From Candidatus Poribacteria bacterium (GTDB lineage Bacteria > Poribacteria > WGA-4E > B28-G17): DNA of 64,000 nt. Made by a program: the position numbers and the translations under genes. Position 1 is the first letter of the stretch. The number at the start of each line of letters is the position of its first letter. Below are positions 11,687-31,087 of the stretch, in pieces. The notes under the pieces are model-generated. The model was not told the origin of the DNA and made no database searches. It saw only the letters and a list, made by a program, of their open reading frames with translations. The stretch is from the NCBI GenBank assembly GCA_021162805.1, contig JAGGXZ010000003.1, positions 8,372-72,371 of the forward strand. Direction: 5' to 3'.

Positions 11687-12250
11687 ATGGCTCAAACAAC
11701 CCTGCAGGAGAGGGTTGATAGACTCGAAATAGCGCTTGAGAGGCTGTCCGGAGAAGTGGAGGAGACCTCCCGCTCCGTGAGACAGCTATCCCTGGAAATG
11801 CGGCTCTTTAAAGAGGAGATGAACAAAAGATGGGGAGACCTTGCCAACAGGCTTGGAACGCTGGTTGAGGACATCGTTGCCCCCGCCCTGCCCCAGGTGA
11901 TCAAAAGACGATTAGGACTGGAACTGGACGACATCATGATCAGGCGGAAGAGAAGAAAAGGAGAGCTGAGAGAGGAGTTCGACGTGATAGGAATCGCCGG
12001 GGATGTGATCTTCGTCGCGGAGGTCAAAAGCCAGTTCAAGGCGGATCATGTCGATAGGTTCTCCGAGAAGCTCAGGAGATTCAGGGAGCTCTTCCCCGAA
12101 TATGAGGATAAGCGACTGATAGGCGTGATAGCCTCGCTTTACTTAGATGAGGGTGTGATCCGTTATGCTACGGCCAAAGGATACTACGCGATGGGGATGA
12201 AGGGAGATTACATGGACTTCCTCAATGCCGAGGAGCTTTCCGCCGGGTGA
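11687..12250 (+). CDS. coiled-coil + PD-(D/E)xK-like protein (short paralog; DUF3782-like architecture, recalled from memory)
   Basis: 187 aa. N-terminal heptad-like region, then 'EFDVIGIAGDVIFVAEVKSQ' (D...E-x-K nuclease-like core), then '...FRELFPEYEDKRLIGVIA'. Confidence 0.75.
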   Translation: MAQTTLQERVDRLEIALERLSGEVEETSRSVRQLSLEMRLFKEEMNKRWGDLANRLGTLVEDIVAPALPQVIKRRLGLELDDIMIRRKRRKGELREEFDVIGIAGDVIFVAEVKSQFKADHVDRFSEKLRRFRELFPEYEDKRLIGVIASLYLDEGVIRYATAKGYYAMGMKGDYMDFLNAEELSAG

Positions 12251-18938: not shown

Positions 18939-19487
18939 ATGAGGATACTCGGTGTTTCGGGAAGCCCCAGGGAGGGCGGCAACTCCGACACGGCGGTCCG
19001 GAAAGCCCTTCAGATGCTCGAAGATCTGGGGGAAACTAGGTTCATCAGGGTGGCGGATTACAACATAAAACATTGTATCGGATGCAGGGAGTGCATGAAG
19101 CTGATGAGATGTGTCATCGATGACGACGAGTTTCAGCTCGTCTTCGATGAATGGCTTAATTCCGACCTGATCATAATCGGCGATCCGGTCTACTGGCATA
19201 GCCCGCCCGGCGTGATGAAGGATTTCATAGACAGATCCCACGCCGTATATGCCCATACCGATCCCCCGTTCAGGGGTAAGAAGGTGGCACTGATAAGCGT
19301 CGCGACCGGAGGAGGTTTCGAAACGCATGATAAGATCTTCTCCACATGGCTCAGACATTACGGCGCCGAGCTGATCGGTAAGGTCAGACTCTACGCTCAG
19401 GAGAAGGATGATCTGCTGCGTCGCCCCTCACAGATGAATAGGCTTGAGAGCTTCATTTCTGATCTGAGGGGGAAGATCACGGGATGA
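18939..19487 (+). CDS. flavodoxin-like fold NADPH-dependent FMN reductase / iron-sulfur flavoprotein-like
   Basis: 'MRILGVSGSPREGGNS', 'CIGCRECMKLMRC' and 'IIGDPVYWHSPPGVMKDFIDR' give an Isf/NADPH-FMN reductase pattern. Confidence 0.75.
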   Translation: MRILGVSGSPREGGNSDTAVRKALQMLEDLGETRFIRVADYNIKHCIGCRECMKLMRCVIDDDEFQLVFDEWLNSDLIIIGDPVYWHSPPGVMKDFIDRSHAVYAHTDPPFRGKKVALISVATGGGFETHDKIFSTWLRHYGAELIGKVRLYAQEKDDLLRRPSQMNRLESFISDLRGKITG

Positions 19488-19843
19488 AGGTGCTGATTGG
19501 CATAGGGAACGAACTCGGCGGCGACGACGCCGTTGGGCTCTATGTGGCCAAACTGATAGACGGGGAAAACGGCTGGATCGGATTCCGATGCGGGACAGCG
19601 CCCGAGAATTTCATCGGCAAGATCGAAAGGCTCGATCCTGAACTCGTGGTTCTGGTGGACGCCGCGGAGATGGGGATCGAACCCGGGGAGTTCAGGGAGA
19701 TCGAACCGGAATATGCCGATACGATCTTCGCTAGCACCCATTCCATCCCAATCTCCTTCCTCCTTAAATGGCTGAGACAGTCTGTCGGTAAGGTGTTCCT
19801 CATCGGAATCCAGGCCAAATCGTTCAATATAGCGGCCCGCTAA
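19484..19843 (+). CDS. hydrogenase maturation endopeptidase (HycI/HybD/FrhD-like), 3' end apparently frameshifted
   Basis: 'VLIGIGNELGGDDAVGLYV', 'VVLVDAAEMG', 'STHSIP'. The conserved tail 'GPLSDEVRKGAKRLVEAL' is encoded in another frame at 19834-19929. Confidence 0.7.
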   Translation: MKVLIGIGNELGGDDAVGLYVAKLIDGENGWIGFRCGTAPENFIGKIERLDPELVVLVDAAEMGIEPGEFREIEPEYADTIFASTHSIPISFLLKWLRQSVGKVFLIGIQAKSFNIAAR

Positions 19844-19953
19844 GCGATGAGGTGAGAAAGGGGGCGAAGAGGCTGGTCGAGGCTTTAACCGAGGGCTTCC
19901 CGCCGATCGACCGCTATGTATGTCAATAGAAACCCTCTGAGCGGGCTGGCGGG

Positions 19954-19982
19954 TTGACTTTCACAATGAAATAGTGTATCCT
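19954..19982 (+). promoter_or_regulatory. candidate promoter TTGACT-N17-TATCCT
   Basis: TTGACT at 19954-19959, 17-nt spacer, TATCCT at 19977-19982. It lies about 40 nt upstream of the activase start. Confidence 0.4.
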
Positions 19983-20022
19983 TTGCTATGACCAGAGGAA
20001 ATCTGATCGGACAGGTGTGAAG

Positions 20023-23000
20023 ATGGTTAACCTTGGAATCGACGTGGGGTCGATAAGCGTCAAAGTTGCCGTTGTAGGAGATAAGGAGGATCGGGAGCTA
20101 TTTAGAAAGATCGATGAAAACAGCTATAACCTTTCCTTGGTGAATAACTCCTTTATCGACAGACCAATTTTGATATCATCCTACCGGAGGATAAAGGGGG
20201 AACCGCTTAAGGTAACGTTTGAAATACTTGATGAGATATATAAGCTCATCCCCGAAATTCAGGGGGTAAGGGTGACAGGAGTAGCTGCAAAGCTGGTGGC
20301 TGATCTGCTGAACGCCCCCGTGGAGAACGATTTCAAAGCTGTAGCCGTGGGAGTCGGCATGCTCTACCCTGAGGTTAGAACGATTTTCGAGATGGGGGGT
20401 GACATATCGAAGTATATACTTATAGATCGTGACTCCTTCGGCAGGATAGGGATCTTGGATTACGAGAAGAACGGAGAGTGTGCGGCCGGAACCGGATCTT
20501 TCATAGATCAACAGGCATCCAGGCTCAAATATGACGTCGAAGAGGTCGGAGATATCGTCCTCAAGGCCGGAAAGCCTCCCACCATAGCCGGAAGATGCTC
20601 GGTGTTCGCCAAATCGGATATGATCCACGCTCAGCAGAGGGGATATCAGCCCCCTGAGATCCTTAAAGGGCTATGTGAGGCGGTGGTGCGTAATTTCAAA
20701 GGGACTATAGTCAAGGGCAAAAAGGTGATCCCGAAGGTGATCTTTATAGGAGGGGTCGCAGCGAATAAGGGCGTCGCCCTCGCTATGAAGGAGGCGTTCA
20801 AGCTTTCGGACGAGGAGTTCTTCGTGCCCGAATATTACGCCTGGATGGGAGCGATCGGAGCCGCTCTGATCGAAGCGGAGAACGAGGAGAAGACGGAGCT
20901 TAGGGGAATTGAGACCCTGGAATTTCACTCAAGAAAACAGCGTTCCGATTTCCCCACCATGCCCCCGCTATCGATGGAAAAGGTTATCCTGCTGAGGGAT
21001 AGGGTCAAACCGTACTCCTTTGAGGGCAAGAGTTTGCCCGTGGACGCCTATCTGGGAGTGGACGTCGGATCGGTAAGCACCAACTTCGCCGTACTGGATG
21101 AAAACGGCGATCTGATCATGGAGATCTACACCCGGACCCAGTCCAGACCGATAGAGGTTGTCAGTGAGGGACTGAGGGAGATCGAGAGGAAGATAGGGGA
21201 TAAAATCAGGATCAGAGGTGTGGGAACGACCGGATCGGGCAGGGAGTTGATCGGAAAGCTCATAGGGGCCGATATCATCAAGGACGAGATCACGGCGCAC
21301 AAAACGGGGGCGACCTTCGTCGGGGAGAGGCTGATAAACCGCACGCCGGATACCATATTCGAGATCGGAGGACAGGATTCCAAGTTCATCAGCATCCAGG
21401 AGGGGATAGTCGTCGATTTCACCATGAACGAGGCATGCGCCGCCGGGACGGGCTCGTTCCTTGAGGAACAGGCTGAGAGGATGGGCATAAACATCGTTGG
21501 GGAGTTCGCCCAGCTGGCCCTCAGCTCTAAATCCCCTATCAGGCTCGGAGAAAGGTGCACCGTCTTCATGGAGAAGGAGATCGGGCCGTATCTACAGCGG
21601 GGGGCGACGAAGGAGGATCTCTGCGCCGGATTGGCCTATTCGATCGCCATAAACTACCTGAACCGAGTCGTTCGAGGTCGGAAGATAGGGGATAGGATCT
21701 TCTTCCAGGGCGGAACGGCCTATAACGATTCGGTCGCGGCCGCCTTCGCCACCCTACTGGATAAGGAGATCATCGTCCCACCGTATAACGGCGTCATAGG
21801 CGCCATCGGCGCGGCGCTCCTGGCGATGGAGAAGGTCAAGGCCTTCAAGACTGAGACGAAGTTCAGGGGGTTTGATCTGAGCAAGGTGAAATATGAGCTG
21901 AGGGTGTTCACCTGTAGGGGATGCTCGAATTTCTGCGAGATCCAGCAGTTTAAGGTCGAGAACGAGGTGACTTATTGGGGCGATAAGTGTTCCGATAGAT
22001 ACAGGAAACACATCAAGAGCGAACGCGAGCCGGTTATCCCCGATATAATGAAAGCGCGGCAGGAGCTGCTCCTCCGCGAATATGAGCCGGATAAACATGA
22101 TGGAGCTAAAATCGGATTCCCAAGGGCCATGTATTTCTACGACAGGTTCCCCTTCTGGGCCAAGCTGTTAGATGAGCTCGGCCTTAACCCGGTTATCTCT
22201 GATCCCACCAACAGGAAGATCACCAAGGCCGGGGTGGATTCCGCCGTAGCTGAGCCCTGTTTCCCGATCAAGGTCGCCCATGGCCATGTGGCTGATCTTC
22301 TGGATAAGGGTGTGGATTTCGTCCTAATCCCCAACGTCATCAACGTCGAAACGGAGTTTCCAGAGGTCAACTCCCATCTCTGTCCCTGGGGTCAGACGAT
22401 GACCTATGTCATCGGCCATTCGCCCCTTATGGAGGGCAGGGAGGAGATGATACTGAGGCCCAGGATACATTTCCGCGACGGAATGGAGAAGGTGAAGAGG
22501 GAGATATACGAGGGTTTATCGCGCCGGTTCAAGATATCGCGTAGGCGATCCGACAGAGCGGTCGAGGCCGCATATGAGGCTCAGCGCAGATTCGAAGAGG
22601 ACCTCCTCAAGATCGGAATCGAAGCGATCGAGAAGCTGGAGGAGACAGGTGAGCTCGGCATCATCCTGATAGGCAGGCCTTATAACATCAACGACAGCGG
22701 CATCAACCTGGACGTGCCCAGGAAGCTCCGCGATTACTACGGCGTAAACGTCATCCCGTATGATGCCCTGCCGCTTAAGGGGATAGACATAAGCGACGTC
22801 AACGATAACATGTACTGGAACTACGGGCGTAGGATACTGCAGGCTGCCAAATTCGTTCGGGATCGCCAGAATCTGCATTTGATCTACATCACCAATTTCA
22901 AGTGTGGTCCGGATTCATATATCAAACACTTCGTCTTCGACGCCTCAGGTAAACCATATCTCACCCTTCAGTTGGATGAGCACGCCAACGATGCCGGGAT

Positions 23001-23073
23001 AATCACAAGGATCGAGGCATATCTGGATAGTAAGGGATTCCTGAGATGGTGGGCCAGGGAGAAGGTGGCGTGA
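20023..23073 (+). CDS. BcrAD/BadFG-family double ATPase ('CoA-substrate-specific enzyme activase') fused to a Cys-rich DUF2229-type region
   Basis: There are two actin-fold ATPase modules ('LGIDVGSISVKVAVV'...'ECAAGTGSFIDQQA' and 'LGVDVGSVSTNFAV'...'EACAAGTGSFLEEQA'). These are followed by 'FTCRGCSNFCEI' and 'AEPCFPIKVAHGHV'. I use the ATG at 20023 (AGGTG RBS) rather than the GTG at 20017. Confidence 0.85.
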   Translation: MVNLGIDVGSISVKVAVVGDKEDRELFRKIDENSYNLSLVNNSFIDRPILISSYRRIKGEPLKVTFEILDEIYKLIPEIQGVRVTGVAAKLVADLLNAPVENDFKAVAVGVGMLYPEVRTIFEMGGDISKYILIDRDSFGRIGILDYEKNGECAAGTGSFIDQQASRLKYDVEEVGDIVLKAGKPPTIAGRCSVFAKSDMIHAQQRGYQPPEILKGLCEAVVRNFKGTIVKGKKVIPKVIFIGGVAANKGVALAMKEAFKLSDEEFFVPEYYAWMGAIGAALIEAENEEKTELRGIETLEFHSRKQRSDFPTMPPLSMEKVILLRDRVKPYSFEGKSLPVDAYLGVDVGSVSTNFAVLDENGDLIMEIYTRTQSRPIEVVSEGLREIERKIGDKIRIRGVGTTGSGRELIGKLIGADIIKDEITAHKTGATFVGERLINRTPDTIFEIGGQDSKFISIQEGIVVDFTMNEACAAGTGSFLEEQAERMGINIVGEFAQLALSSKSPIRLGERCTVFMEKEIGPYLQRGATKEDLCAGLAYSIAINYLNRVVRGRKIGDRIFFQGGTAYNDSVAAAFATLLDKEIIVPPYNGVIGAIGAALLAMEKVKAFKTETKFRGFDLSKVKYELRVFTCRGCSNFCEIQQFKVENEVTYWGDKCSDRYRKHIKSEREPVIPDIMKARQELLLREYEPDKHDGAKIGFPRAMYFYDRFPFWAKLLDELGLNPVISDPTNRKITKAGVDSAVAEPCFPIKVAHGHVADLLDKGVDFVLIPNVINVETEFPEVNSHLCPWGQTMTYVIGHSPLMEGREEMILRPRIHFRDGMEKVKREIYEGLSRRFKISRRRSDRAVEAAYEAQRRFEEDLLKIGIEAIEKLEETGELGIILIGRPYNINDSGINLDVPRKLRDYYGVNVIPYDALPLKGIDISDVNDNMYWNYGRRILQAAKFVRDRQNLHLIYITNFKCGPDSYIKHFVFDASGKPYLTLQLDEHANDAGIITRIEAYLDSKGFLRWWAREKVA

Positions 23074-23081
23074 GATAGGTC

Positions 23082-23945
23082 ATGAATACGCTGAAGATTT
23101 ACGACGAGCTGAAAGATGCTCTGGGTGAACAAGCTGCTAGGGCTATAGCCAGGGTGATAGGCGATCTATATGAGTCGGAGCTTCTCAGATTGAGAGAGGG
23201 TTTCGAGAAGCTGATAGAATCTCATAGGCAGAGCCTCGGCAGATTGGATAGGATAGAGCAAAGCATTGGAGAACTGGCGGAGGCACAGAGGAAAACTGAG
23301 GAGAGGCTGGAGGAACTGGCTGCAAGAGTGGATACGCTGGCTGAAGCGCAGAGGAGGACTGAACAAAGGGTTGAGGAGCTGGCGGAGGCACAGAGGAAAA
23401 CTGAGGAGAGATTAGAAAACCTTGCTGCAAGAGTGGATGCGCTGGCGGAGGCGCAGAAGAGAACCGATCGGAAGGTCGAGGAATTAGCCGAAGCTCAAAG
23501 AAGGACTGAGGAGGAGCTGAGAAAGCTGGCAGCAGCCCAAAGGGAGACGAGAAGGCAATTGGGAGGACTCGCTCACACGGTGGGATACAGGCTGGAGGAC
23601 GAAGCGTTCAAAGCTTTGCCGAAGCTGTTGGGAAGGGATCTGGGAGCCAAGCTCGTAGGGAGACTGAAGAGGGATTATATCGAGATCGCACCCGATAGAT
23701 ACGTCGAGATCAACATACTCGGCAGGGCGGTCAAAGATAGTAAGGAGTTCGTCATCATAGGGGAGGCGAAGAGCCAACTGAGAAAAAGGGATGTGGATGG
23801 ATTTATCAAAAGGTGTGAGGGATTGAAGCGATTTCTTGGGGAGGATCAGATCAGGGTTTTGGTCGTCTACCAGGCACCACCTCAGGTTCAGAGGTATGTT
23901 AGGGAAAAGGGAATCATGCTCTACTTCTCCTATGATTTCAGCTAG
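23082..23945 (+). CDS. coiled-coil repeat + PD-(D/E)xK-like protein (paralog 2)
   Basis: 287 aa with repeated 'LAEAQR(K/R)TEERLE.LAARVD.LAEAQ.RT...VEE', then 'YVEINILGRAVKDSKEFVIIGEAKSQLRKRDVDGF' (E...E-x-K core). It lies 8 nt after the previous stop and 14 nt before the next start. Confidence 0.8.
   Translation: MNTLKIYDELKDALGEQAARAIARVIGDLYESELLRLREGFEKLIESHRQSLGRLDRIEQSIGELAEAQRKTEERLEELAARVDTLAEAQRRTEQRVEELAEAQRKTEERLENLAARVDALAEAQKRTDRKVEELAEAQRRTEEELRKLAAAQRETRRQLGGLAHTVGYRLEDEAFKALPKLLGRDLGAKLVGRLKRDYIEIAPDRYVEINILGRAVKDSKEFVIIGEAKSQLRKRDVDGFIKRCEGLKRFLGEDQIRVLVVYQAPPQVQRYVREKGIMLYFSYDFS
23276..23485 (+). repeat. in-frame 105-bp (35-aa) tandem duplication inside paralog 2
   Basis: 'ggcggaggcacagaggaaaactgaggagag' recurs at 23276 and 23381, an offset of 105 nt. 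A third, more diverged unit follows. Confidence 0.6.
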
Positions 23946-23959
23946 AGGAGGATTTCATA

Positions 23960-25297
23960 ATGGCTAAGCTGTCCAGAGAGGAGAAGAGATTGGAGAAGCT
24001 TCTACGGAAGAGGATGCTGGCCGAGCAGAGGGCCGAGCTCAGAAGGCGTAAGGTCTATATCCCTCAGATGAACTACCCAGGATCGAGAGCATTGGCGGCC
24101 GTTTTGAGATCCGCCGGGATAGATGCCGATGTGTCGCCCGACGACACGAGGAAGGCCATAGACCTCGCCGGAAGGTATCTCTCCGGCGATGAGTGTCTTC
24201 CGGAGAAGATCACGCTGGGCGGACTTCTCAAGGTTCTGATGGAGGAGGGCGTGGACCCCGGCAAGGTCGCCTTTTTCATGCCGACGGCCGGCGGGCCGTG
24301 CAGGTTCGGACAGTACAGGGTCCTCGTCAAGAAGATACTGGACGATCTAGGTTACAGGGATGTGCTGATCGTATCGCCATCGAGCAAGGACGGATACAGG
24401 GGAATAGCGGAGGCGTCGACCGAGCTGATCCGAACGGCATGGTGGGCGGTCGTCGCTTCGGATACGCTCATGAAGATGCTTCACAGAACCAGGCCATACG
24501 AGGTAAACAAGGGCGATACAGATGAGGTCTTCGAAAGGGGAACCGAGCTTATATGTAAGGTGTTAGAGCAGAGGATACCGCTCAAGGAGAAATTCAACCT
24601 GCTCAGGCAGACAATGGAACAGATCAGAGATGAGTTCAGAGCCATTCCGGCCATATACGATCCCGAAAGGCCGCTCATCGGCGTCGTGGGCGAGATATTC
24701 TGTAGGATGAACGTGCTGAGCAACGAGGATCTGATACGAAAAGTTGAGGAGTTGGGCGGAGAATGCTGGCTGTCGGATGTGTCTGAGTGGATATGGTATA
24801 CGAACAGGGAGACGATCAAGAGGATAATCGACGCGGGCAAGAGGTTCTCGGTGGATATGATCATAGAGAAGATAAAGGCACGGATACAACGCCGGGATGA
24901 GCATCTCCTGCTTGAGCCTTTTAAGGAGGATCTGCGCGGCTATGAGGAGCCGGATGACATCAACGTGATCCTGGAGGCAGGACTGCCATATCTGCCTGTG
25001 GACGGCGCCTTGGGCGAGATGGTTCTCAGCGTCGGCAAGGCCGTATATCTCTATCGCAAGGGCGCCGACGGCATAATCGATATCAGCCCCTTTACCTGCA
25101 TGAACGGCATCGCCTCCGAAGCGGTATACCCGCATCTCAGCCGCGATCACGACAACATCCCCATAAAGAACTTCTACTTCGACGGCACGCTGACCGATCT
25201 GGAGAGGGATCTCAGCATTTTCCTGGAACTGGCCCGAAACTATCAGAAGCGAAAAAAGGTGAAAAGGGTCTATCCGAAATGCTTCGGGGTGAGCTGA
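23960..25297 (+). CDS. activase-related / 2-hydroxyacyl-CoA-dehydratase-like (DUF2229-type) protein
   Basis: 445 aa with '[15 protein letters not shown]', '[15 protein letters not shown]' and 'ISPFTCMNG'. These are typical of the C-terminal part of the long activase polypeptides. A GAGGAGG RBS is present. Confidence 0.75.
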
Positions 25298-26106
25298 GAA
25301 GACCGCCCGTCGCCATGACGATAGCCGGATCTGACTCAGGTGGCGGGGCGGGAATACAGGCCGATCTGAAGACCTTCGCCTCCATCGGCGTCTTCGGCTG
25401 CTCGGTGATCACCTCGCTCACCGCTCAGAACACCAAGGAGGTCTTGTCGATATATGACCTCCCTCCCCACTTCATCGCCTTACAGTTCGACGCTGTCCTA
25501 AGCGACATACCGGTCGACGCGGCCAAGACTGGAATGCTCTCACGGGCTGAGACGATCGAGACGGTCGTCGGGAAGATAGGCCAGTATGGGATCACAAAGC
25601 TGGTGGTTGATCCGGTGATGGTCGCCACAAGCGGGGATAGGCTCCTGAGCCGGGATGCCGAAAGGACGCTCGTCGATAAACTTCTGCCGATGGCGACGAT
25701 CGTCACGCCGAATCTCCTTGAGGCCGAGGTTCTGAGCGGCGTGAGGATCAGATCCATCGACGATATGAGATCGGCGGCCGAGAGGATAAAGATCCTCGGC
25801 CCTAAATTCGTCCTCATAAAGGGCGGACATCTGGGGGAAGGGCAGAACGGAGATGCCGTGGATATCCTATACGATGGCGCGGAGTTCCACGAGATCAGAT
25901 CGAATAGGGTGAAAACCGATAGATTACATGGGGCGGGCTGCACCCTCTCATCCGCCATCACGGCATATCTGGCCATGGGATACGAACCGATTGAAAGCGT
26001 GAATTTGGCCAAAAGATACATCCATCGCGCCATCCTCGGCGCCATGAGGATCGGCTCCGGTGGACTCGTACTTGAGTGGAGGGGAGGTTATGAAGAGGAT
26101 AACTGA
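25279..26106 (+). CDS. thiD: hydroxymethylpyrimidine / phosphomethylpyrimidine kinase
   Basis: '[19 protein letters not shown]', '[12 protein letters not shown]', '[11 protein letters not shown]'. An alternative start at 25315 is possible. Confidence 0.9.
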
Positions 26107-26899
26107 GCGCATATGGGTGGAGACCGAATATGAGGGCGCTAACGTCGGCTTCATCCTGACGCAAAAGGGAGTTATATGCGTCGAAAGCCCGATGTCCCCG
26201 CCGGATATCAGGGATTGGATCTCCAAGATCAGATCGATAACGGAGGCCGAGATCGCCTACGTGATAAGCACCGATCACCACTTCGACCACTCCATCGGCG
26301 ATTGGCTCCTCGGCGGCAAGGTCATAATGCACGAATCCTGCCTCGAAGGACTAAGCGAGGTGAGGGAGAACTTCAGGGAATTGTTCAGACACTTCTTCGA
26401 GTGGAAATACGAGGAGGTCAAGGAGGAGCTGGAGGAGATCAGAGTTGAGGAGCCGGATATCACCTTCTCCGAAAAGCTCTCGCTGCTGTGCGGCGATGTG
26501 ACGGTGGAGGTAGTTCATATAGGCGGTCATTGCGAGGGGACCAGCTACGTCTATGTGCCGCAGGAGAGGGTGCTCTTCACGGGCGACGCCGTCTCGATCG
26601 GACAGCATCCATACCTGGGGGATGCCCTCTTCGACGATTGGATCAGAGGGTTGGAGAGGATGATGGAGCTCGATGTGAGGTATCTGGTGCCAGGCCACGG
26701 GGAGGTCGGCGATAAATCGGACATCGAAAGGCTATTGCGTTTCTTCGAGATGATGGGGGAGAACGTCGAGAGAGGTAAGGAGGATATCGAAGCGTTATAT
26801 AACTTCTACCCGGTCCGTCCCGAAAGGAGGGAGATGCTGAAGGATTGGCTGAGGGATGGACTAAGAAGGATGAGGGAACAGAGGGAAGGTAATGAGTGA
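26090..26899 (+). CDS. MBL-fold metallo-hydrolase
   Basis: 'ISTDHHFDHSIGD' (HxHxDH) and 'VPGHG'. I prefer the ATG at 26090, preceded by GGAGGGGAGG, over the track's GTG at 26060. Confidence 0.8.
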   Translation: MKRITERIWVETEYEGANVGFILTQKGVICVESPMSPPDIRDWISKIRSITEAEIAYVISTDHHFDHSIGDWLLGGKVIMHESCLEGLSEVRENFRELFRHFFEWKYEEVKEELEEIRVEEPDITFSEKLSLLCGDVTVEVVHIGGHCEGTSYVYVPQERVLFTGDAVSIGQHPYLGDALFDDWIRGLERMMELDVRYLVPGHGEVGDKSDIERLLRFFEMMGENVERGKEDIEALYNFYPVRPERREMLKDWLRDGLRRMREQREGNE

Positions 26900-27965
26900 C
26901 TTCATATTCATCGATAGGTTTAAACGGGAGGAGATAGAGGGGCTCTTCGAGCTAACCGATGATATCAAAAGCAGACCAGATCTATTCGCGTCGAAATGCA
27001 GGGGGAAGATACTGGCGACCCTGTTTTATGAGCCGAGCACCAGGACGAGGCTTTCGTTCGAAAGCGCCATGTTGAGGCTCGGCGGATCGGTTCTGGGCTT
27101 CGCTGACGCCAAGGTCTCATCCGCCGCTAAGGGCGAGACGATAGCCGACACCGCCAGGATGGTCTCCAACTACGCCGATCTGATCGTCATCCGCCATCCC
27201 CTGGCAGGTGCCGCACAGGTGATGGCCGATTACTCGGAGGTGCCGGTCATAAACGGCGGGGATGATAGCAATCAACATCCCACCCAGACGCTCCTCGATC
27301 TTTACACCATCTCCAGATGTAAGGGGAGGATCGAGGGGCTTAACGTCGGAATATGTGGCGATCTGAGGTATGGACGGGCACCACATTCCCTCGCTCTCGG
27401 CCTAGCCATGTTCGGAGGGAAGATCATCAATATCGCCCCTCAAGGGCTGGAGATGCCCCGTCATGTCATCGAGAGACTCCGCATCCTCTACGGAGCTGAG
27501 GTCGAAACCGTCCGCGATCTTAAGGGGGTGATCTCCGATCTGGATGTGCTTTATGTGAACAGGCTTCAGAAGGAGCGACTGCCAGAAGACGTGGATTATG
27601 AGGCGATCAAGGACAGCTACGTCATCACGCCCGACTCGATCCGTAGCTCGAAGCCCGACATGATCATCATGCATCCCCTTCCCCGCGTGAATGAGCTATC
27701 GTATGAGCTGGACGATGACGGCAGGGCGATGTATTTCGAGCAATCCCGAAACGGGCTTTTCGTCCGCATGGCGCTGATCTTGGCCCTGACAGGAAATACC
27801 CACTTGGAGCTCAACCCCGTCGAGAGGGAGAGGATAGAGTTGGAGGTTAAGTGCGGCAATCCCAGATGTGTGATCGATCACGAACCCTACCTCCGTCCCG
27901 TCTATGAGGCCCTATCCTCGGAGGGCGAGGAGAAGTTCTGCGTATACTGCGGATATAGGCTTTAA
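26892..27965 (+). CDS. pyrB: aspartate carbamoyltransferase catalytic chain with a C-terminal PyrI-type zinc-ribbon extension
   Basis: 'FYEPSTRTRLSFE', 'HPTQTLLDLYTI', 'HPLPR', 'NGLFVRMALI'. An extra roughly 55 aa reads 'VKCGNPRCVIDHEP...FCVYCGYRL' (C-x4-C...C-x2-C). Confidence 0.9.
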   Translation: MSDFIFIDRFKREEIEGLFELTDDIKSRPDLFASKCRGKILATLFYEPSTRTRLSFESAMLRLGGSVLGFADAKVSSAAKGETIADTARMVSNYADLIVIRHPLAGAAQVMADYSEVPVINGGDDSNQHPTQTLLDLYTISRCKGRIEGLNVGICGDLRYGRAPHSLALGLAMFGGKIINIAPQGLEMPRHVIERLRILYGAEVETVRDLKGVISDLDVLYVNRLQKERLPEDVDYEAIKDSYVITPDSIRSSKPDMIIMHPLPRVNELSYELDDDGRAMYFEQSRNGLFVRMALILALTGNTHLELNPVERERIELEVKCGNPRCVIDHEPYLRPVYEALSSEGEEKFCVYCGYRL

Positions 27966-28205
27966 CCCCGTTCCTTCCGATCCCTTTTCGTCCGCCTTTG
28001 CCTCCTCGACCCAATCGGGTGTGAAGTTCGGATCCTCAACCAATCTCAGGAGCATCGGATCTTTGACAAAGGGAACCCTTCCGTCCCATCCCTCATGCCG
28101 CGTTACCTTCCAAACCTCAGGGCAGGCTGGTTGCTCTGAAACATCTGAAAAGGCCATGAAGGCGAAGATCATCAACTCGATCATCTCGAGCCCCTCAAAG
28201 GCCAT
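27912..28205 (-). CDS. hypothetical small protein (uncertain)
   Basis: 97-aa ORF that starts 11 nt inside the uvrB 3' end (AAGGGGAG before the ATG). Its last 18 codons overlap the convergent pyrB 3' end. The central part '[37 protein letters not shown]' looks protein-like. Confidence 0.3.
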
Positions 28206-30216
28206 ATCTCCCCTTGAGCTCCTTTATCTGATCTCTGATAACAGCGGCCTTTTCGAACTCCAACCTCTCCGCTGCCTCTCTCATCTCCCTTTCCAACTCC
28301 TCTATCGTCCGCTTCACCTCTTCAGGATCCATCTCCTCCAGGGGAGCATATAGCTCCTCGTCGGGTTTCTCCCTGAGCACCTCCGAGATAACCTTTGGCT
28401 CGGCCCTGCTTACCTCCTTCTCCCTCTCGATATCTATCAGATCCCTTATCGCCTTTTCGATCGTGGCAGGAGTTATACCGTGTTTTTCGTTATACTCGAG
28501 CTGGATCCTGCGTCTCCTCTCGGTCTCATCTATGGCCTTTTTCATGGCGTCGGTGATCCGATCGGCGTAGAGGATGACCTCGCCGTCGACATTTCTGGCC
28601 GCCCGTCCAGCCGTTTGAATGAGCGACGTTTCCGATCGGAGGAAGCCCTGTTTATCGGCATCGAGGATCGCCACAAGAGAGACCTCAGGCAAATCTAGTC
28701 CTTCCCTCAGCAGGTTAACCCCGACGAGCACGTCGAACTTCCCCTCTCGCAGCTCTCTGAGTATGTCGGCCCGTTCCAGCGTGTGTATCTCGGAATGCAG
28801 ATACTTGGCCCTTATTCCCATCTCGGCCAGATATTCCGTCAGATCCTCGGCCATCCGTTTGGTGAGGGTGGTCACGAGCACCCGCTGTCCCTTGGTTACC
28901 CGCTCGCTGATCTTGCCTATCAGGTGATCGATCTGGCCCTCCACGGGATGGACGGAGATCTTCGGGTCGACCAGACCTGTGGGTCTGATGATCTGCTCGA
29001 CCACCTGCTCGCTGCGTTCGAGTTCGAACCTGCCAGGGGTCGCTGAGACGAAGATCGCCTGGTTGATCAGCTCCTCGAACTCCTCGAACTTCAGAGGGCG
29101 GTTGTCCAACGCTGAAGGCAACCTGAAGCCATATTCGATCAGGGTCTCCTTACGGGTTCTATCTCCGTAATACATCCCACGAAGCTGAGGTATGGTCACG
29201 TGTGATTCATCTATGAAGACCAGAAAATCGTCGGGGAAATAGTTTATGAGGCAGTAGGGAGGTTCGTCCGGCCTCCTTCCGGAGAAATGTCTGGAGTAGT
29301 TCTCTATCCCTCTGCAGTAGCCCGTATGTCTGAGCATCTCCAGATCGAACCTCGTTCGCTGTTCGATCCTCTGTGCCTCGAGCAGCTTCCCTCGTGAGAG
29401 AAAATACTCTATCCGCTCCTGAAGCTCGGCCTCGATGTCCAAAAGCGCCTGTTCGAACCGTTTGGGGCTGGTCATGAAATGCCTTGCGGGGAAGATATCC
29501 ACTGAGTCGAGCTCCTCCAGAACCTCCCCCGTCAGCGGATCTATCATGGTTATCCTCTCCACCTCGTTGTCGAAGAGCTCCACCCTGTATGCGACATCCT
29601 CGTATGCCGGATATATATCTATCACATCGCCTCTCGCCCTGAAGGTTCCCCGTTGAAGGACCATATCGTTTCGCTCGTATCTTATGTTGACCAATCCTCG
29701 CATTATCTCCCTGCGCGAGACCAGATCGCCTTTCCTGATGGATACCCGCTGTTGGAAATACTCATCGGGCGATCCGATTCCGTAGATGCACGAGACGCTG
29801 GCGACGACGATCACGTCCTTTCTGGAAAGCACGGCGGAGGTGGCGGCCAGGCGGAGCTTATCTATCTCCTCGTTTATCCTAGCGTCCTTCTCTATGTAGG
29901 TGTCCGTCTGAGGGATATAAGCCTCGGGCTGGTAGTAATCATAATAGCTGACAAAATACCGGACGGCGTTTTTCGGGAAGAAGGTCCTGAACTCGCTGTA
30001 AAGCTGAGCGGCAAGGGTCTTGTTGTGTGAGATGACGAGCGTCGGACGTTGGACGTTCTGAATGATATGGGCCATCGTGAAGGTCTTGCCTGACCCCGTC
30101 ACGCCCAGCAGAGTCTGATATCTATATCCCTTAAGCAGGCCCTCGGTCAGCCTTTCTATCGCCTGAGGTTGATCCCCCTTAGGTTCGAAATCGGACACGA
30201 GTTCGAATTTCGGCAT
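28195..30216 (-). CDS. uvrB: excinuclease ABC subunit B
   Basis: 673 aa with '[12 protein letters not shown]', 'DYYQPEAY' and 'DESHVT', plus a C-terminal UVR domain '[15 protein letters not shown]'. Confidence 0.95.
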
Positions 30217-30223
30217 TCGGATC

Positions 30224-31087
30224 TCACCTCCTGCACGAATCTATCCAGGCTTTCAGGGCCTCCTCCCAGAAGGAGATCACACCGTCACGCATAAGGGCGA
30301 CCTTCTCCAAACGCGCTGCCTCTTCCGCTCCCAAAGTTGTTTTTTCTCCCGCGGCCACAGGTATTGCCTGATATCCCGCCTTTCTCAACAGCCTCGCTCT
30401 CCTTGCAGCTCTCTCCACATCCGTGCGATCCACCGTTGCTGAGATCTCCACCGCCAGCCATACCTCCCTATCTTCGGCGTGACGTAACCTGCCCTTTACC
30501 AGGAGGTCAAGGAGCAGCAGGTCGTTAAACTCCCCCGGGCTGAGTTCGGATTCCAATCTGTCCTCGAGGGAATGGGTTTCCACCACCTGAACACGCCTTA
30601 AGAACCTTCCGAAGTAGGCTCCCGCTCGTTTCGCATAAAGCAGCTCCAGCATTTGCCCTATCATCTTTCCAACCCTATCCTCAAGTCTCCCATGTGCCGT
30701 GGCAAGGGTATCCATATGCGTCGTAAGCGTCTCAATCTTCTCTGCGAGCGATTCAAGCCTTTCCTCAGTTCTTCTTTGAGCCTCGGCTAGTTCCTCAACC
30801 CTCCTTTCAAGCGTTTCGAGTCTCTCTGTGAGCGCCCCGATCCTCTCCTCAGTTTTTCTTTGAGCCTCAGCTAGTTCCTCAACCCTCCTTTCGAGGGTTT
30901 CAAGTCTCTCTGTGAGCGTCTCGATCCTCTCCTCGGTTCTCCTCTGCACTTCGACGAGCTCCCTGAAGGCTTCGGGAAGTTTCAAGAGCTCATCTGTAAG
31001 AACGAGCCTTCTGAGCTCCTCCCTCCACTCCGGTTTCTCCTCAAGGAGCTTGATGAGGTCATGAAACTCCTCCACCGTAAATCTCAT
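30224..31087 (-). CDS. coiled-coil repeat + PD-(D/E)xK-like protein (paralog 3)
   Basis: 287 aa with '[10 protein letters not shown](K/R)TEER...[10 protein letters not shown]' repeats, then '[12 protein letters not shown]...[24 protein letters not shown]' (D...E-x-S/K-type core). Its stop lies 7 nt before the uvrB ATG. Confidence 0.8.
30763..30930 (-). repeat. in-frame 84-bp (28-aa) tandem duplication inside paralog 3
   Basis: Units begin at 30763 and 30847 ('cctcagtt(c/t)ttctttgagcctc(g/a)gctagttcctcaaccctcctttc...'), with only a few mismatches. Confidence 0.6.

Follow-up and report, generated by a model that had tools for sequence, protein, structure and literature searches.

A 64,000-nucleotide (nt) stretch of Candidatus Poribacteria DNA (GenBank assembly GCA_021162805.1, contig JAGGXZ010000003.1, positions 8,372 to 72,371 of the forward strand), referred to below as the window, carries an operon in which an activase-type gene and the gene for its partner of 445 amino acids (aa) are separated by an additional open reading frame (ORF) of 864 nt. 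Judged by its sequence, this ORF encodes a predicted endonuclease of the DUF3782 + DUF8196 family. We are highly confident that it is a real gene, that it belongs to this family, and that it is an insertion and not a subunit of the host system. Positions are those of the window unless a locus handle (L001 and the like) is given. The features of the locus are as follows.

19954-19982, plus strand: promoter-like site, the only one upstream of the operon (consensus scan, weak evidence).
20017/20023-23073, plus strand: upstream host gene of the activase type, with two BcrAD_BadFG/acyl-CoA-dehydratase-activase modules and DUF2229 at residues 698-917 (Pfam, NCBIfam).
23074-23959, plus strand: insertion segment of 886 nt, replacing the 15-nt spacer of the relatives L005/L006 (blastn and junction alignment).
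23082-23945, plus strand: inserted ORF, ATG to TAG, 287 aa, with the coiled coil and predicted PD-(D/E)xK fold of the DUF3782/DUF8196 family (ORF list).
23082-23561, plus strand: alpha-helical coiled-coil stalk, residues 1-160 (matches to coiled-coil families and, weakly, to DUF3782 only; in the AlphaFold2 (AF2) model a long helix runs into the following domain).
23271-23513, plus strand: tandem repeats of 105 nt (35 aa), composed of 21-aa and 14-aa sub-repeats with LAEAQ(R/K)xTE (Tandem Repeats Finder and repeat search).
23562-23942, plus strand: head domain, the C-terminal ~125 aa (AF2 model with a predicted local distance difference test score, pLDDT, of 91; Foldseek matches in the PDB; conservation over 72 homologues).
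~23084-23870, plus strand: segment of 790 nt deleted in L177/L179 (blastn and junction sequences).
23945-23951, plus strand: GAGGAGG, the Shine-Dalgarno sequence of the 445-aa gene, starting on the G of the insert's TAG (sequence).
23960-25297, plus strand: downstream host gene encoding the 445-aa activase partner, with homologues of ~400-460 aa, many with PF09989; it adjoins the activase gene in L005-L010.

A spacer of 8 nt separates the ORF from the stop codon of the activase gene, and one of 14 nt separates it from the 445-aa gene. These spacers, the GAGGAGG beginning at the insert's stop codon (its first G is the last base of the TAG) and the 35-aa coiled-coil repeats had been pointed out in a first-pass annotation made from the letters alone, and all of them were borne out. 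In the repeat region, Tandem Repeats Finder gave a 105-nt repeat in 2.0-2.3 copies with 78-82% matches, and the LAEAQ(R/K)xTE core occurs five times at spacings that alternate 63/42/63/42 nt, which corresponds to three plus two heptads (21 + 14 residues). A 287-aa gene was called at the same position in the independent assembly L092, and the ORF is present in all other assemblies of the window's own strain. The GC content of the insert is the same as that of its flanks. In two further independent assemblies of the strain, L093 and L094, the contigs end at position 1 inside the coiled-coil repeat of this gene; short-read assemblies seem to be broken up by the 105-nt repeats, and such breaks could cause under-calling of the DUF3782/DUF8196 family in metagenomes. 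The purine-rich coiled-coil region is also overlain by antisense ORFs, of 66-97 aa in the window (23166-23777, minus strand) and of up to 423 aa elsewhere (L011-L090); their clustering across loci L011-L090 as genes was rejected, as they are by-products of repeat composition.

The first-pass annotation had proposed comparing the orthologous activase loci of related genomes. In this comparison the conserved site proved polymorphic for the presence of an ORF-sized insert: by blastn, window 20014-23073 corresponds to L005 4929-7985 and window 23960-27956 to L005 8001-12001, with 886 nt between the two host genes in the window vs. 15 nt in L005. Gene-context look-ups found the activase and partner genes adjacent, 15-18 nt apart, in three sets of relatives, from all of which the ORF is absent.

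L005/L006: insert-free; 445-aa protein 90% identical.
L007/L008: insert-free; 445-aa protein 83% identical; labelled Candidatus Poribacteria at NCBI.
L009/L010: insert-free; 445-aa protein 70% identical; a metagenome-assembled genome (MAG) of Spirochaetota.

The empty junction reads GTGGCGTGA-AAGGAGGAGACCGCT-ATG, and the filled one GTGGCGTGA-GATAGGTC-[ORF]-AGGAGGATTTCATA-ATG; the L005-type empty stretch is GTGGCGTGAAAGGAGGAGACCGCTATG, also given as …GGTGGCGTGAAAGGAGGAGACCGCTATGGCT…. Comparison of the junctions with L005 and L001 showed that the GAGGAGG of the window is AGGAGGA in the empty site.

An orthologous ORF occupies the same site, with the same downstream genes, in L001, where the 445-aa protein is 93% identical and the DNA ~85% identical; this is the sole orthologous filled locus outside the window strain, and only its downstream flank is covered. 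The ratio of nonsynonymous to synonymous substitution rates (dN/dS) for the nuclease domain between the window and L001 is 0.08 at a dS of about 1.1, and that of neighbouring genes is 0.06-0.24. For the 445-aa gene, dS comes to 0.67 with L001 and 0.95 with L005, which makes L005 the outgroup. Three precise losses would be a less parsimonious history than one gain in the lineage that led to both the window and L001. The sequence comparisons thus point to an essentially ORF-only insertion of 886 nt into a 15-nt spacer in an ancestor from which both of these lineages descend, and to an ORF that has been kept under purifying selection ever since.

A near-identical strain provided the third state of the locus. 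The DNA of L177 is 96-98% identical to the window, and L179, from a second sample, is 99.8% identical to L177; both have lost most of the ORF, with both flanking genes intact. In L177 the remnant consists of the start region GATAGACCAT and the final 75 nt of the ORF, and the TAG and the ribosome-binding site are likewise kept. Because the same junction was found in these two independent assemblies, the deletion is real, and because a near-identical strain has deleted the gene, it is dispensable. Taken together, one operon was found in three states among close genomes, namely never inserted, inserted and selected, and deleted. This natural experiment excludes a role in the activase enzyme and describes a gene that is dispensable yet maintained, in agreement with the first-pass proposal of an insertion as opposed to a dedicated subunit. 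The locus illustrates gene gain and loss neatly and does not represent a new kind of system. L177/L179 also lack 172 nt in a HycI-like ORF (window 19591-19762; ORF 19484-19843) and 400 nt in a Lactamase_B ORF (window 26318-26717; ORF 26060-26899), and L177 has ~445 nt of unmatched sequence near the latter site, so that this strain seems to be accumulating deletions.

The ends of the insert (23074-23959) revealed no direct or inverted repeats and no target duplications beyond chance. Marks of a transposon, an insertion sequence or an integron cassette were likewise not found: there are no terminal repeats, the sequence outside the ORF amounts to just 8 + 14 nt, and no recombinase is a conserved neighbour across 78 family loci.

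The insert was not the cause of the division of the activase system into two genes. The first-pass annotation had correctly assigned two activase modules to the upstream gene, as Pfam and NCBIfam showed, and had placed the downstream gene in the DUF2229 region. The 445-aa gene itself had no match in the local Pfam scan; many of its ~435-aa homologues carry precomputed PF09989/DUF2229. Stand-alone homologues of ~400-460 aa occur in hundreds of genomes of many phyla, which makes the two-gene arrangement normal and not insert-made; a gene of ~1018 aa followed by one of ~440 aa is the usual organisation, and we rejected insertion as the reason for the split. The consensus scans, which are weak evidence, detected no internal promoter in the operon and no plus-strand terminator-like site in 19400-28300.

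The family of the inserted gene was established mainly from its head. A search with the C-terminal 163 residues gave 699 homologues, the best 83% identical (E = 7e-78), the next 75% and then many of 50-65%. The head matches proteins with precomputed PF26618 (DUF8196) at E = 1e-57 to 1e-64 and 55-65% identity. A phmmer search of 1.84 billion representatives gave 688 clusters at 50% identity (E <= 1e-3), with the head always C-terminal behind a variable N-terminus. The match of the stalk to DUF3782 (PF12644), 17.6 bits and E = 4e-3, lies under the 24.4-bit cut-off, and the homologue P0057 reached 25.6 bits. Like other DUF3782 + DUF8196 proteins, the target protein combines a variable LAEAQ(K/R)(K/R)TE stalk with a ~125-aa C-terminal head that is 50-83% identical to many members and shares with them the signature HTVGYxLED ... 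E-x-N ... GE(A/C)K(S/T)Q. It differs from them in nothing essential and is particular in its location only: it lies inside an operon without an upstream region of its own, and has natural empty-site and deletion alleles. Several homologues are labelled 'chordopoxvirus fusion protein', a misnomer that stems from the coiled coil.

The family is thus not uncatalogued, as the first-pass annotation had assumed. A PD-(D/E)xK domain behind a coiled coil was predicted for the related DUF1626/COG5493 by Knizewski et al. in 2007 (PMC1913061), coiled-coil PD-(D/E)xK proteins of the DUF3782/DUF8196 type were described in silico by Hartmann et al. in 2016 (PMC4786415), and DUF1626-type restriction endonuclease genes have been placed among conflict systems (PMC3710099). 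Our literature search found no papers on DUF8196 or on the 'chordopoxvirus fusion protein' and no experimental function for the family. These proteins form hundreds of clusters in thermophilic bacteria, have related forms in archaea and have been regarded as nuclease-like since 2007. The target and DUF1626/PDDEXK_10/COG5493 proteins are alike in being in silico predictions and in occurring in thermophilic archaea and bacteria; unlike DUF1626 proteins, the target retains the lysine of motif III (K230), and in motif II it has Asn at the Asp position.

The AF2 model of residues 125-287, built with 74 sequences, has a mean pLDDT of 91 and the strand/helix order H-E-E-E-H-E-H-E. Foldseek showed that every significant match in the PDB is a PD-(D/E)xK nuclease (EndoMS/NucS, 5gke, E = 6e-5; VC1899, MspJI, XisH, Cap4, Card1 and Can2), and in a viral structure library most of the named matches are to PD-(D/E)xK, Mrr or restriction-endonuclease proteins. 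The model therefore supports the restriction-endonuclease fold that had been read from the sequence at first pass, and indicates that the C-terminal core has a PD-(D/E)xK fold of the NucS/Cap4/Card1 kind. A PDB sequence search with the head yielded just one spurious match to a designed protein.

The expected PD-(D/E)xK signature consists of a Glu on helix 1, an Asp on strand 2 and (D/E)xK on strand 3. Among the 72 close homologues over which conservation was counted, the relevant residues are distributed as follows.

E172, codon 23595-23597: invariant, 72/72.
D173: 71/72.
E209, codon 23706-23708: invariant, 72/72.
N211, codon 23712-23714: invariant, 72/72.
E228, codon 23763-23765: 66 Glu and 4 Asp of 72.
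K230, codon 23769-23771: 64 Lys and 8 Arg of 72.
Q232, codon 23775-23777: 71/72.

The E/D...(D/E)xK motif announced in the first-pass annotation is therefore present in part: E172, E228 and K230 stand, and the Asp position is taken by the invariant N211, near which, two residues before, lies the equally invariant E209. In the probable register of the hairpin, N211 is opposite E228 and E209 opposite K230, which would make N211 the canonical Asp position. The catalytic competence of the nuclease-fold head is accordingly not assured, and the invariant Asp-to-Asn change makes the family a useful case for how PD-(D/E)xK active sites can be rebuilt.

The best structural match to the head is NucS/EndoMS (5gke, 2vld), a mismatch-specific endonuclease of archaea and actinobacteria, with which it shares the PD-(D/E)xK core and E/D...ExK (Foldseek E = 6e-5, probability 1.0). 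The differences are considerable: a coiled coil stands in place of the NucS N-terminal DNA-binding domain, the Asp position holds Asn, sequence identity is 15-18%, and the TM-score is only 0.4, partly owing to the long helix in the model. No Pfam or NCBIfam NucS match and no PDB sequence match pointed to homology with NucS at the sequence level. RmuC (PF02646), which is implicated in recombination at inverted repeats, is another protein with a coiled coil and a C-terminal PD-(D/E)xK domain. The target resembles it in having a long helical/coiled-coil N-terminus followed by a restriction-endonuclease-like head; it is far smaller, has no membrane anchor, and gave no match to the RmuC Pfam model at E <= 0.1.

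Elsewhere, a scan of one genome per species gave 104 family loci, mostly in thermophilic or hydrothermal lineages (Thermodesulfovibrionales, Desulfosoma, Desulfofervidaceae, Thermodesulfatator, Aquificales, Calescamantes, Desulfacinum, WOR-3), with two or three copies in several genomes. No conserved partner gene was found across 78 loci; two large recurrent neighbour clusters in this set were rejected, being antisense ORFs inside the purine-rich coiled-coil region. The orientation of neighbours varies, and no motif is common to the flanks of the family copies. Downstream gaps are often short, and upstream gaps mostly exceed 100 nt, which suggests that most copies have a promoter of their own. 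The nearest non-orthologous relative, L004 (75% identical), lies in a different context behind its own leader sequence.

One Candidatus Desulfofervidaceae MAG carries copies at different loci (L020 4717-5497 and L023 4822-5476) that are 93-95% identical at the nt level. The identity starts only ~45-60 nt ahead of the ATG, in a stretch with a promoter-like TTGCCA-17 nt-TAATGT, and extends no further than 2-4 nt beyond the stop. Either a unit of ORF size has moved recently or the paralogs have undergone gene conversion. The two copies differ by three 42-nt (14-aa) repeats, thus indicating that stalk length changes quickly. Long vertical retention is nevertheless common, as loci are syntenic between Desulfacinum infernum, D. 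hydrothermale and a Desulfacinum MAG, in Desulfosoma pairs and in a Thermosulfurimonas/Thermodesulfatator pair.

Searches by tblastn found no family member among 72,556 plasmids or in 50,697 phage records, and in IMG/VR a relative occurs on 1 of 2.9 million contigs; we therefore rejected carriage by mobile elements. PHROGs and PADLOC matches to tape-measure, SMC and JetC proteins were dismissed as compositional. These loci do not bear out the first-pass suggestion of a selfish coloniser of intergenic spacers: most family members have upstream regions of >100 nt, their contexts are mixed, several loci are syntenic across species, and the target gene is under strong purifying selection.

The window holds two further genes of this general type within 20 kb of the target.

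11687-12250, plus strand: P1, 187 aa, with a short stalk and a DUF8196-homologous head that has the canonical E-x-D...E-x-K-x-Q motif (alignment).
30224-31087, minus strand: P3, 287 aa, with a LAEAQRxTEE stalk and a DUF1626-type head (conserved D194...E214-x-S216, with E-x-S instead of E-x-K).

Both had been named as paralogs at first pass. They exist as described, except that P3 lies on the minus strand, which had been left unsaid, and that its head belongs to another subfamily than the target's, with a distant sequence relation, if any. The P1 head matches family loci at tblastn E = 1e-5 to 1e-18, and P1 has a weak match to CARF_PDDEXK in PADLOC (E = 7.6e-4). P3 has at least 849 homologues, a weak match to PDDEXK_10, an AF2 pLDDT of 93 and EndoMS as its best Foldseek match (E = 0.015). 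A profile relation between the heads of the target and of the DUF1626-type P3 family was tried and rejected (hhalign E = 0.24-0.26, not significant), so that P3 is called a paralog only through its stalk and the shared fold. The observation that the shared stalk peptide is written in different codons, gaggagctggcggaggcacagagg in the target vs. gaggaactagctgaggctcaaaga in P3, was confirmed. In two delta-proteobacterial MAGs, a P1-like short paralog lies ~2.4-3 kb from a DUF8196 gene (L069 1581-1970 and L090 1955-2344; 30% identity to the P1 head, E = 1e-18), and different family subtypes thus co-occur in other genomes too.

Downstream of P3, at a distance of 7 nt, comes uvrB (28195-30216, minus strand); this holds for the window, L177 and L178. 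Upstream, 138 nt separate P3 from a gene for a 1064-aa alpha-L-rhamnosidase, and three related lineages have kept this rhamnosidase-P3 pair. L175 comes from the sample that also gave the empty-site L005; there, the rhamnosidase gene is again followed by the P3 orthologue, and the next gene encodes a sulfatase in place of UvrB. P3 is thus an older resident, its linkage to uvrB is not conserved, and in L175 uvrB has been rearranged away. In a metagenome scan, none of 80 other uvrB loci (among the matches listed, <= 62-63% UvrB identity) had a family gene nearby; the scan gave only distant loci and is uninformative on the P3 sites of close relatives. In the near-identical strain L178 (1-5806), genes for a 1032-aa N6_N4 methyltransferase and a 1043-aa ResIII helicase lie upstream of the rhamnosidase gene, on the side where the window and L177 have a Kdo-transferase gene instead; this looks like a strain-variable, restriction-modification-like insertion.

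We regard the ORF as an accessory gene that entered the activase operon by insertion and has no part in the activase machinery. The reading that we favour, at a probability of about 0.5, is that it encodes a trans-acting endonuclease of the conflict or maintenance type, kept by the host. The insert would have no promoter of its own, so that its transcription would ride on the operon, and it would be translated by re-initiation 8 nt past the activase stop, with the 445-aa gene keeping its own ribosome-binding site. The stalk may oligomerise the protein and bring two or more nuclease-fold heads together on DNA, by analogy with dimeric NucS or Hjc. Acting in trans, the protein would then serve in genetic conflict or genome maintenance as a DNA endonuclease that is structure-specific or directed at foreign DNA, and the host would retain the gene for the usefulness of this activity. 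The protein probably binds DNA, and the odds lean slightly towards its actually cleaving it; a host-beneficial role in defence or maintenance, as opposed to pure self-propagation, is about an even bet.

Several observations speak against this reading. The canonical Asp position holds Asn in all 72 members of the target family compared and Asp in both P1 and P3, and N211 may mean that catalysis is altered or lost. The family members are in silico predictions only, no sensor or immunity component that would spare the host's own DNA is evident, and the family neighbourhoods consist of housekeeping genes and are not defence islands. The PADLOC matches of the target are confined to coiled-coil regions of the SMC, JetC and ZorA type. 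Finally, a self-mobile gene would account at least equally well for the ORF-tight boundaries and for the presence of several copies in one genome.

Such a self-mobile gene could be homing-like: its nuclease would cut insert-less alleles at or near the intergenic target, and repair would paste in the ORF-sized unit, as in the intronless homing of free-standing phage endonuclease genes. We consider this unlikely, though several points favour it: the clean filled/empty/remnant series at one locus, an insert that is essentially the ORF alone without terminal repeats or duplications, the restriction of the L020/L023 identity to the ORF plus short edges, the several paralogs per genome with a patchy spread across phyla, and the different context of L004. 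Free-standing homing endonuclease genes include seg and mob of phage T4, and I-Ssp6803I is a homing enzyme with the PD-(D/E)xK fold. The target is like such genes in being an ORF-sized nuclease gene between conserved genes, with relatives that differ in carriage and with a degraded or deleted allele; it is unlike them in being chromosomal and absent from the phage and plasmid records searched, in having a coiled coil and not a DNA-recognition domain, and in being under strong long-term purifying selection. A dN/dS of 0.08 over a dS of ~1 at a fixed locus, together with cross-species synteny, would be unusual for a fixed homing gene, and the insertion sites have no common flanking sequence. The identity of L020 and L023 is equally explained by gene conversion between pre-existing paralogs, the tight boundaries possibly reflect later trimming, since the insertion predates a nt divergence of 13-19%, and N211 again replaces the catalytic Asp. 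The dS of flanking genes, available for L001 only and on the downstream flank, gave no obvious co-conversion tract. With similar reserve, the whole DUF3782/DUF8196 family may be imagined as ORF-sized, self-propagating chromosomal nuclease genes, homing-like but outside phages and introns, which would cut insert-less alleles and be copied into them as these are repaired; DNA uptake, or the several chromosome copies of a polyploid thermophile, could give them the opportunity to spread. If so, the filled, empty and remnant alleles of this locus would be snapshots of a life cycle. The empty junction supplies the exact candidate target sequence for a cleavage test, where cutting would reveal chromosomal homing-like nuclease genes in bacteria and its failure would point to defence or DNA maintenance.

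The Asn at the Asp position in 72/72 homologues and the Lys-to-Arg exchange in 8/72 also fit a catalytically impaired pseudo-nuclease, whose head only binds DNA or another ligand and whose coiled coil makes it a scaffold or regulator; D-to-N mutants indeed serve as inactive forms of related nucleases, e.g., Card1 D294N (6xl1, a Foldseek match). We find this rather doubtful, as E172, E209 and E228 are invariant or nearly so along with K230 and Q232, and E209 probably lies on the same hairpin face as N211, E228 and K230, a pattern of invariant residues that suggests a working active site. A helper in DNA repair or recombination, RmuC- or NucS-like and recruited to housekeeping operons, appears improbable. 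Its main basis is similarity of fold, since EndoMS/NucS heads the structural matches of the target and of P3 alike; P3 also adjoins uvrB in three near-identical genomes, and the family is concentrated in thermophiles. Against this, the uvrB linkage is lost in L175, the other uvrB loci listed (0/80) had no such gene, the target is dispensable in the sister strain, and neither the NucS N-terminal domain nor the RmuC model matches. As for a dedicated third subunit or regulator of the activase/DUF2229 pair, the same-strand position inside the operon with its short spacers, conserved in L001 and L092, would be in its favour, but the empty sites of L005/L006, L007/L008 and L009/L010 effectively refute it, and the deletion in L177/L179 with intact flanking genes and the unrelated neighbours of family members elsewhere leave it highly improbable.

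Two observations concern the surroundings of the activase operon. A BatA/VWA gene directly precedes the operon in L005 (2713-4812, minus strand) and lies ~6 kb away from it in the window, beside P1 (12266-14086, minus strand), thus indicating that the region upstream of the operon was rearranged between the two. In the Poribacteria-labelled, insert-free relative L007, two tandem genes of Uma2, another expanded PD-(D/E)xK family of unknown function, lie upstream of the operon (1800-2951).

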